Source: Squalus acanthias
Taxonomy: Eukaryota
Assembly (NCBI GenBank): GCA_030390025.1
Contig: CM059438.1
Span: 26,598,001 to 26,662,000, forward strand
Direction: 5' to 3'
DNA: 64,000 nt
Shown: positions 2,290 through 3,127 of the stretch, piece after piece
How positions within the stretch are numbered: position 1 is the stretch's first letter
Layout: the number at the start of each line of letters is the position of its first letter
Translations under genes and position numbers: made by a program
Notes under the pieces: model-generated
The model's database searches: none
The model's input: the letters and a program-made list of their open reading frames with translations, nothing else
What the model was told of the DNA's origin: nothing

Positions 2290-3127
2290 TGACTGGGAAA
2301 CTAACCAGCCCTGAGGAGGCGGGTTTGGAGGCGGGACTGCTGGGAAAATGGCAGAAACTGGGAGCGGGTACCAACCCCGCTCCCAACCCGCCTCTGTGCC
2401 ATCTTCCCGGGAGGCGGGTCCCCGAGTCGCGCAGGGACCCGTCTCCTCGAGGTGGGAAGGGGATGAGAGCCAATTAACTGCCTGTTAACAGGTAGTTAAC
2501 GGGCAGTTAAGAGGCTTATCCCCATTTCACGCCTGCATTTGCGGGCTTCCTGACGGCTGTGAACCTCGCCAGGGTCAGAAAGGCGAGTAGTGGGTCTGCG
2601 GGGGTGAGAGGGGTTGAAATGTCAGCTGTAGAGGTGAGTGATGGGTGCAAGTGTGGACAGGTAAGTATGAGAGGTGAGTGTAAAGTGTTGGAAAAAGTTT
2701 CCTTACCTTTGCTTCTTTCTGCAGGCTTCAACCTTTGGGCATCCAGAGGTGCCTCATCTCAATGGCAGAGATGACAGAATGGCTGCTGCATTCTCAGATG
2801 CAGCAGCCATCTGCTTTCTGCTGAGGAGAGAGGTTTTGGTTAGCCTTTTGTACAAGGGCTCACCTTAGAACAGAAAGTGTCAGTTCTCAAAGCTGTCAAA
2901 CGCTGACAATTCATCTGTCAAAAATTTTTTGACAGATGAAGCAGCATACGCTGACGTCATCTGTCAGCGGCTTTCTCTTGATTGGCCGGTAAGCCCGCAG
3001 GGCGGGCTTAACAAGGTCAATCAAGGGAAAATAGTGTGGGTTGGTCAGACGTTGCTGGGGGCAGGACTAAAACCCTGAAAACCAGCAGTTTCGCCCCTAA
3101 CATGCCTTCATTGACAAAATCCAGCCC
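2290..3127 (+). mobile_element. Harbinger-like MITE, family A copy 1
   Basis: Colinear with 48480-49259 (close) and 45489-46333 (diverged). Right TIR tgacaaaatccagccc; left TIR degenerate. Internal hairpins present. Confidence 0.85.

Follow-up and report, generated by a model that had tools for sequence, protein, structure and literature searches.

Results

Family A copies, ends and class

Comparing a 64,000-nucleotide stretch of DNA (the window) with itself, we found an approximately 840-bp non-coding element with terminal inverted repeats (TIRs), family A, in three copies within 64 kb, all on the + strand. Copy 3 is nested inside an older TIR element, which has the flanking triplets AAT/ACT and is repeated in the genome by contig depth.

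2290..3127, + strand: copy 1; right TIR intact, left TIR damaged; flanking triplets ACA / TAA mismatch
45489..46333, + strand: copy 2, a diverged subfamily; perfect 16-bp TIRs; flanking triplets CTT / ATG mismatch
48480..49259, + strand: copy 3; internal deletions; 3-bp TSD ACA/ACA
48257-49789: host TIR element around copy 3

Copy 1 differs from copy 2 at 212 of 815 aligned sites (26%), and from copy 3 at 83 of 761 (11%). The perfect TIRs of copy 2 begin with GGGCTGGATTTT, and the TIR of copy 3 has 12 bp with 1 mismatch. Within the left TIR of copy 1 (2290-2311), changes are clustered in a small hairpin loop, and a clean inversion of the loop was not seen. One of the three copies has an intact TSD (copy 3, ACA/ACA); copy 1 has TAA on one side only, and the triplets of copy 2 may be read as lying one change each away from CTG.

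Variants and joints were obtained from contigs of four runs on 45300-49400 (the listing covers 40 of the 519 variant rows and 15 of the 516 joints). Among the joints listed, an empty-site joint, 48475->49259, matching the flanks of copy 3 with a single ACA, was present in 1, 4 and 2 contigs (runs X3, X8 and X9). Since these host-element contigs join the copy 3 flanks by one ACA, the 3-bp duplication is confirmed. In three DNA-type runs, the summed contig depth of copy 2 was 17,000-60,000, 18,000-83,000 and 4,300-34,000 times that of unique flank, which is not a copy number and gives an order of magnitude only (~10^4 times unique flank). Contigs of organisms C and D pass out of unique flank into copy 2 at each of its ends, by 26-28 letters, and those of organism D only reach 19 letters into copy 3, all below the 31-letter threshold; this suggests that copy 2 is an old insertion shared with organisms C and D, and copy 3 one shared with D.

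All six frames are interrupted by stops in each of the three copies, and Pfam returned no match for frames overlapping them; together with the TIRs, these results uphold the preliminary description of a non-coding TIR element. No Harbinger domain or autonomous partner was found by Pfam among 148 of the 192 window frames of at least 68 aa. At the flanks, copies 2 and 3 fit the motif A-N-N-Y..R-N-N-T at 4/4 positions (background 2.1%) and copy 1 at 3/4. The G-starting TIRs and the 3-bp duplication, compared with excerpts of PMC4482050 and PMC9179366, place family A very probably among PHIS/Harbinger-type MITEs. A description of this family was not found in the literature searched, and a prior Repbase or Dfam entry is possible. 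A pattern scan for further copies found no locus in viral contigs, and two patterns found none in metagenome contigs; 30 bacterial matches to a 17-mer were set aside, their number being within chance for 596 Gb.

Other repeats in the window

A second TIR family lies at 865-1623, with GGGCTAGAAATT-type ends, an intact ACG/ACG duplication and six AGCGCT palindromes near its left end; it contains 9 local inverted repeats versus 2.1 in shuffles, with motifs different from those of family A. Further GG..RATT-terminal elements were located at 49855-50533 (AAT/AAT duplication), 39330-39490, 47273-47438 and from 47782 onward. Every intact duplication in the window (ACA, ACG, AAT) has A first. An inverted repeat of 212 nt (98% complementary) lies in the segment 53327-54036 and has further inverted and direct repeats inside it; it resembles either a recent inverted duplication or an artefact of assembly.

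Decayed LINE fragments, presumably CR1/L2, occupy 18000-21700, 25000-26100 and 57100-57470; the sole Pfam match among the frames searched (148 of 192 of at least 68 aa) was a weak one to RVT_1 at 19372-19848, scoring under the curated cut-off. A SINE-like repeat occurs at 3157-3532, beginning 30 bp past copy 1, and at 51171-51530 (84% identical), with 4 local inverted repeats versus 0.9 in shuffles.

Hairpin chain

Perfect local stems of at least 8 bp numbered 9, 7 and 5 in the three copies of family A, versus shuffle means of 0.33-0.37 (maxima 2, 4 and 3; 200 shuffles). The stems lie in the two outer thirds of the element, leaving free a central block rich in purines.

2310..2460, both orientations: left subterminal GGAGGCGGG array, forming helices a and b
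2459..2523: stem (i), a long hairpin with an 11-bp unit around two GTTAAC; two alternative pairings, both kept
2600..2725, + strand: unfolded purine-rich cassette; splice-donor-like motifs at 2632, 2659 and 2672 (+) and at 2708 (-); acceptor-like tract at ~2712-2724
2779..2810: stem (ii), a 13-bp stem that copies 1 and 3 keep without mismatch; 45976-46007 in copy 2
2838..2864: stem (iii), with 2 compensatory changes and, at 46031-46063 in copy 2, a perfect 13-bp form
2877..2969: TGACA/TGTCA-based arms in an array that contains stem (iv) (2910-2940) and allows several mutually exclusive pairings
2972..3030: nested hairpin with CCAAT-like and GC-box-like motifs inside; 1 compensatory pair (46183/46230)
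3053..3102: right subterminal GGAGGCGGG hairpin; the copy 1 form is decayed, the copy 2 form has 1 compensatory pair (46265/46301)
45607..45643: doubly partnered base in copy 2, A45616 being complementary to both T45622 and T45634

The cassette at 2600-2725 is the best-conserved interior block, with 5/126 differences between copies 1 and 3 and 22/121 relative to copy 2. Because this best-conserved block is unfolded, sequence as well as pairing is kept in family A. In run X19 (guessed RNA; 909 assembled contigs), none of the 4 joints listed links a donor-like to an acceptor-like motif, which is uninformative either way.

Each copy has 5-7 matches to GGAGGCGGG (at most 1 mismatch), and every one of them falls in the first ~165 nt or the last ~75 nt of the element. 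We consider these motifs candidate sites for a Myb-like protein.

We then inspected the individual stems. The change of AGCC/GGCT to ATCC/GGAT in stem (i) was recovered as one compensatory pair (45666/45712), with the arms at 2468-2471/2513-2516 rather than within 2474-2510 as first placed; a second compensatory pair lies at 45656/45720, and in copy 2 the neighbouring TTAA/TTAA stretch is disrupted. The arms of stem (ii) do change together, with 3 compensatory pairs in copy 2, alongside 3 one-sided changes that leave single G·T, C·A and A·A mismatches. For stem (iii), both the 2 compensatory pairs between copies 3 and 2 and the perfect 13-bp stem of copy 2 were reproduced; the preliminary description had passed over a mismatch in copy 1, whose left arm (2838-2845) reads GGTTAGCC. 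A further arm variant of this stem appears in one contig of run X19. Stem (iv) has the 2 compensatory pairs claimed for copy 2 (46123/46138 and 46128/46133), and most of it is missing from copy 3.

Paired changes between copies

Covariation is standard evidence for functional RNA structure. We scored in copy 2 a set of 14 hand-set helices, comprising 155 pairs that are Watson-Crick in copy 1 or 3: 101 were unchanged, 37 changed on one side, 15 were compensated, and 2 were doubly changed without pairing. The three copies represent two independent lineages only. The 15 compensatory changes compare with 3.5 under a permutation null, and 0 of 20,000 permutations reached 15 (P<5e-5). A + strand fold in which copy 2 took part had suggested two of the helices (c_out, h0); leaving these out brings the compensations to 12. 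Stems chosen automatically gave the same direction, with 7/104 compensatory pairs versus 2.0 expected for stems from copy 1 (P=0.001), and 10/94 versus 2.9 for stems from copy 2 (P=5e-5). An independent count found 16 pairs changed on both sides, versus 1-2 when partners were slid by 1-3 columns. Both-side changes were also counted in RNAalifold helices from the three sequences (20/275 pairs on the + strand, 21/240 on the - strand); the long-range helices differ between strands and were left unused.

These results support the claim that both arms change together in several stems: all four stems are present, and double changes exceed chance. Compensation occurs in 10 of the 14 helices, more than had been listed earlier, whereas the 37 one-sided changes in the same 155 pairs had been left out. 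Five of the 15 compensations are transversions, without a G·U intermediate. Between copies 1 and 3 we counted 1 doubtful compensation and 25 other changes; for copy 2 the corresponding numbers are 15 and 39 (Fisher P=0.015).

Divergence and folding of the two strands

Stem sites diverge at 0.212 (60/283) and unpaired sites at 0.264 (83/314), a difference that is not significant (P=0.15). Mean local folding z-scores on the +/- strands were -4.3/-3.7, -3.9/-3.4 and -2.2/-2.4, with minima down to -9; relative to shuffles, the two strands fold similarly.

Strong local folding (z down to -9) together with covariation would be expected if family A encoded a stand-alone structured non-coding RNA with a function for the host or the element. 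We consider this very improbable: the whole window has 0 Rfam matches at gathering score, the folding has no strand preference, the TIR/TSD anatomy is that of a DNA transposon, and the copies decay with deletions.

Strand-symmetric folding also fits cruciform-forming DNA, and the palindromes could alternatively be double-stranded protein sites, in either case raising mobility. The near invariance of the GGAGGCGGG array and the GTTAAC pair across copies speaks for such sites, as do the binding of Myb-like partners to terminal or subterminal sequences (excerpts of PMC13668399 and PMC2836001) and the tuning of mPing mobility by internal sequence (available text of PMC9921582). Sequence-specific sites, however, should keep rather than swap base pairs, and stems (ii)-(iv) share no common motif or spacing and are located where the element has diverged most (33-41% per 40 columns at 2750-2870). 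Dimeric-protein sites do not account for stems (ii)-(iv), given that their sequences change. As an account of the whole chain this reading is unlikely, and it probably accounts for the terminal helices only.

We also compared G·T with A·C mismatches on the + strand. The 14 hand-set helices gave 26:10 (P=0.011), or 23:10 without the two fold-derived helices (P=0.035), and unpaired sites had no such lean. In 16 of 16 automatic, strand-blind, overlapping stem sets, G·T exceeded A·C, none significantly (P 0.11-0.78). Two further, smaller counts gave 13:9 and 13:7. Strand-biased G-U tolerance, proposed earlier as a check, thus appears as a + lean in the hand-set helices, but is insignificant in the 16 automatic sets and is accompanied by equal folding z-scores.

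The lean bears on the possibility that a folded + strand is kept by selection acting in the mobile lineage, the strand being a structured RNA leader, untranslated and derived from transcripts of a parent Harbinger, or single-stranded DNA formed as an intermediate during transposition or gap repair. We regard this as a possible explanation, if one that we would not expect to prevail. It is favoured by the + strand G·T lean, by a G·T pair at 2414/2442 retained in all three copies, by compensation in 10/14 helices and its concentration between subfamilies, and by donor-like and promoter-like motifs facing inward from both ends of family A. Weighing against it, the lean is insignificant in every automatic set, stems are barely slower than unpaired sites, both strands fold alike, mutually exclusive pairings are co-maintained, and the window has no Rfam match.

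Evidence from single positions

In copies 1 and 3, the bases aligned with A45616, T45622 and T45634 of copy 2 are T, A and A. A45616 fits two exclusive partners, so two pairings that are unable to coexist both tracked one change.

At 46138 in stem (iv), 98.7-99.8% of depth reads C, the copy-1 base, and the compensating A of copy 2 makes up at most 1.3% of family depth (three DNA-type runs, among the variants listed). This indicates that the stem (iv) swap is private to copy 2 or to a small clade; the chance of a private compensatory pair is P about 0.2. Among the same listed variants, the changes of copy 2 at 45930 and 46154 are private decay. Some breaks in copy 2 were therefore absent from the master, which favours selection on a folded + strand.

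Simulation of arm-to-arm correction

Our best explanation, to which we give an even chance, is that the paired changes arise mainly by arm-to-arm copying during DNA synthesis, not by selection on an RNA. Simulating substitution at the unpaired rate with symmetric correction reproduced the 101/37/15/2 distribution (chi-square p 0.39-0.80 in 5/5 settings), the correction rate being a fitted free parameter. Strict selection on masters fitted only with at least 12% later decay of copy 2, versus the 5-11% by which its conserved 40-column blocks differ, and this favours correction. The hairpin richness of the unrelated TIR element at 865-1623 was likewise counted for templated correction. When the alignments were inspected, no clear inverted loop, the strongest signature of template switching, was seen.

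If correction ran at a constant rate in every copy, 3-5 compensations would be expected between copies 1 and 3 (P of at most 1 = 0.24, or 0.03 at the higher rate setting), so that correction would have to be tied to the mobile lineage. Their scarcity between these copies suggests that the agent, whatever its nature, works mainly in that lineage, in which selection would operate as well. Templated changes may provide the double mutations on which selection for a + strand fold would work, and the two can act together.

The preliminary description held that structure rather than sequence is maintained. Its paired arm changes are real, but they do not establish selection: the stems show no significant slowing, strands fold alike, and a neutral model fits. 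Hairpin-templated arm correction, which it had named as the neutral alternative, fits at least as well as selection.

Discussion

We propose that an autonomous Harbinger would supply a transposase as well as a Myb-like protein, the latter binding the repeated GGAGGCGGG motifs. A mismatch in a near-perfect inverted repeat may then provoke a short template switch, whereby the old pair is restored or a new pair is fixed. Such correction would be most frequent in the mobile lineage, where copies could be gained through homology-directed repair of the excision site; mutations of this type are known from homology-directed repair in yeast. Weak selection on the fold may filter the outcome of correction.

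Parts of this route have precedents. According to excerpts of PMC5453318 and PMC8794818, both hairpins and compensatory changes are generated by template switching with no selection at work, and a passage of PMC3820800, citing others, has quasi-palindrome mutations arising in break repair. Repair synthesis is described as mutagenic in the available text of PMC4608483, and repair-based copy gain of mPing has limited support in that of PMC10288884. Joining template switching, break repair and excision-site copying in family A is our own proposal. As in those excerpts on template switching (PMC5453318, PMC8794818), family A has perfect stems and seemingly simultaneous pair swaps including transversions; the cases reported there concern human-chimp DNA and RNA genes, not a transposon family, and the loop inversion is unseen in family A.

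Among known elements, zebrafish Harbinger3N_DR and Harbinger3_DR (PHIS; excerpts of PMC2836001 and PMC3016246) resemble family A as a non-autonomous TIR element with a 3-bp duplication. Harbinger3_DR duplicates CWG, whereas the intact TSD of family A is ACA, and the likeness drawn here is one of description. The 15-bp palindromic target given for Harbinger3_DR in the excerpts of PMC3016246 is matched by the flanks at 8/12 positions for copy 3, 6/12 for copy 2 and 5/12 for copy 1. The same excerpts on Harbinger3N_DR (PMC2836001, PMC3016246) do not mention an internal covarying hairpin chain.

The mPing/Tourist-like MITEs, in the available text of PMC2836001, PMC9921582 and PMC10288884, are like family A non-coding and high-copy, with short TIRs and a 3-bp TSD. 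According to that text, mPing depends on a two-protein partner, a dependence that family A would share, and Tourist-like MITEs measure 100-500 bp with the TSD TWA, whereas family A has ~840 bp and its one intact TSD, ACA, is other than TWA. In the main text of the mPing mobility paper (PMC9921582), "hairpin" and "palindrom" have 0 occurrences. The PHIS elements NuwaI and Pangu, in the excerpts of PMC4482050, have TIRs of 11-61 bp starting with GGG (NuwaI) or GG/AG (Pangu) and a 3-bp TSD, as family A does; NuwaI duplicates CWG and Pangu ANT, and the ACA of family A matches neither exactly. In the available part of PMC9179366, no Harbinger was found in elephant shark, and other cartilaginous fish were proposed for testing.

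Family A thus presents covariation in a DNA transposon of several subfamilies, with about ten thousand copies by order of magnitude. It can readily serve to test if template switching, acting alone, keeps stems and yields compensatory changes, and if these are driven by gap repair after excision. That vertebrate Harbinger MITEs are selected for a one-strand hairpin chain, with folded single-stranded DNA or RNA joining amplification, seems doubtful to us. If the + strand G·T lean is true, it would point to an unrecognised single-stranded step in the amplification of Harbinger MITEs, absent from the cut-and-paste model. As matters stand, family A is ordinary mobile DNA with an instructive mutation pattern.
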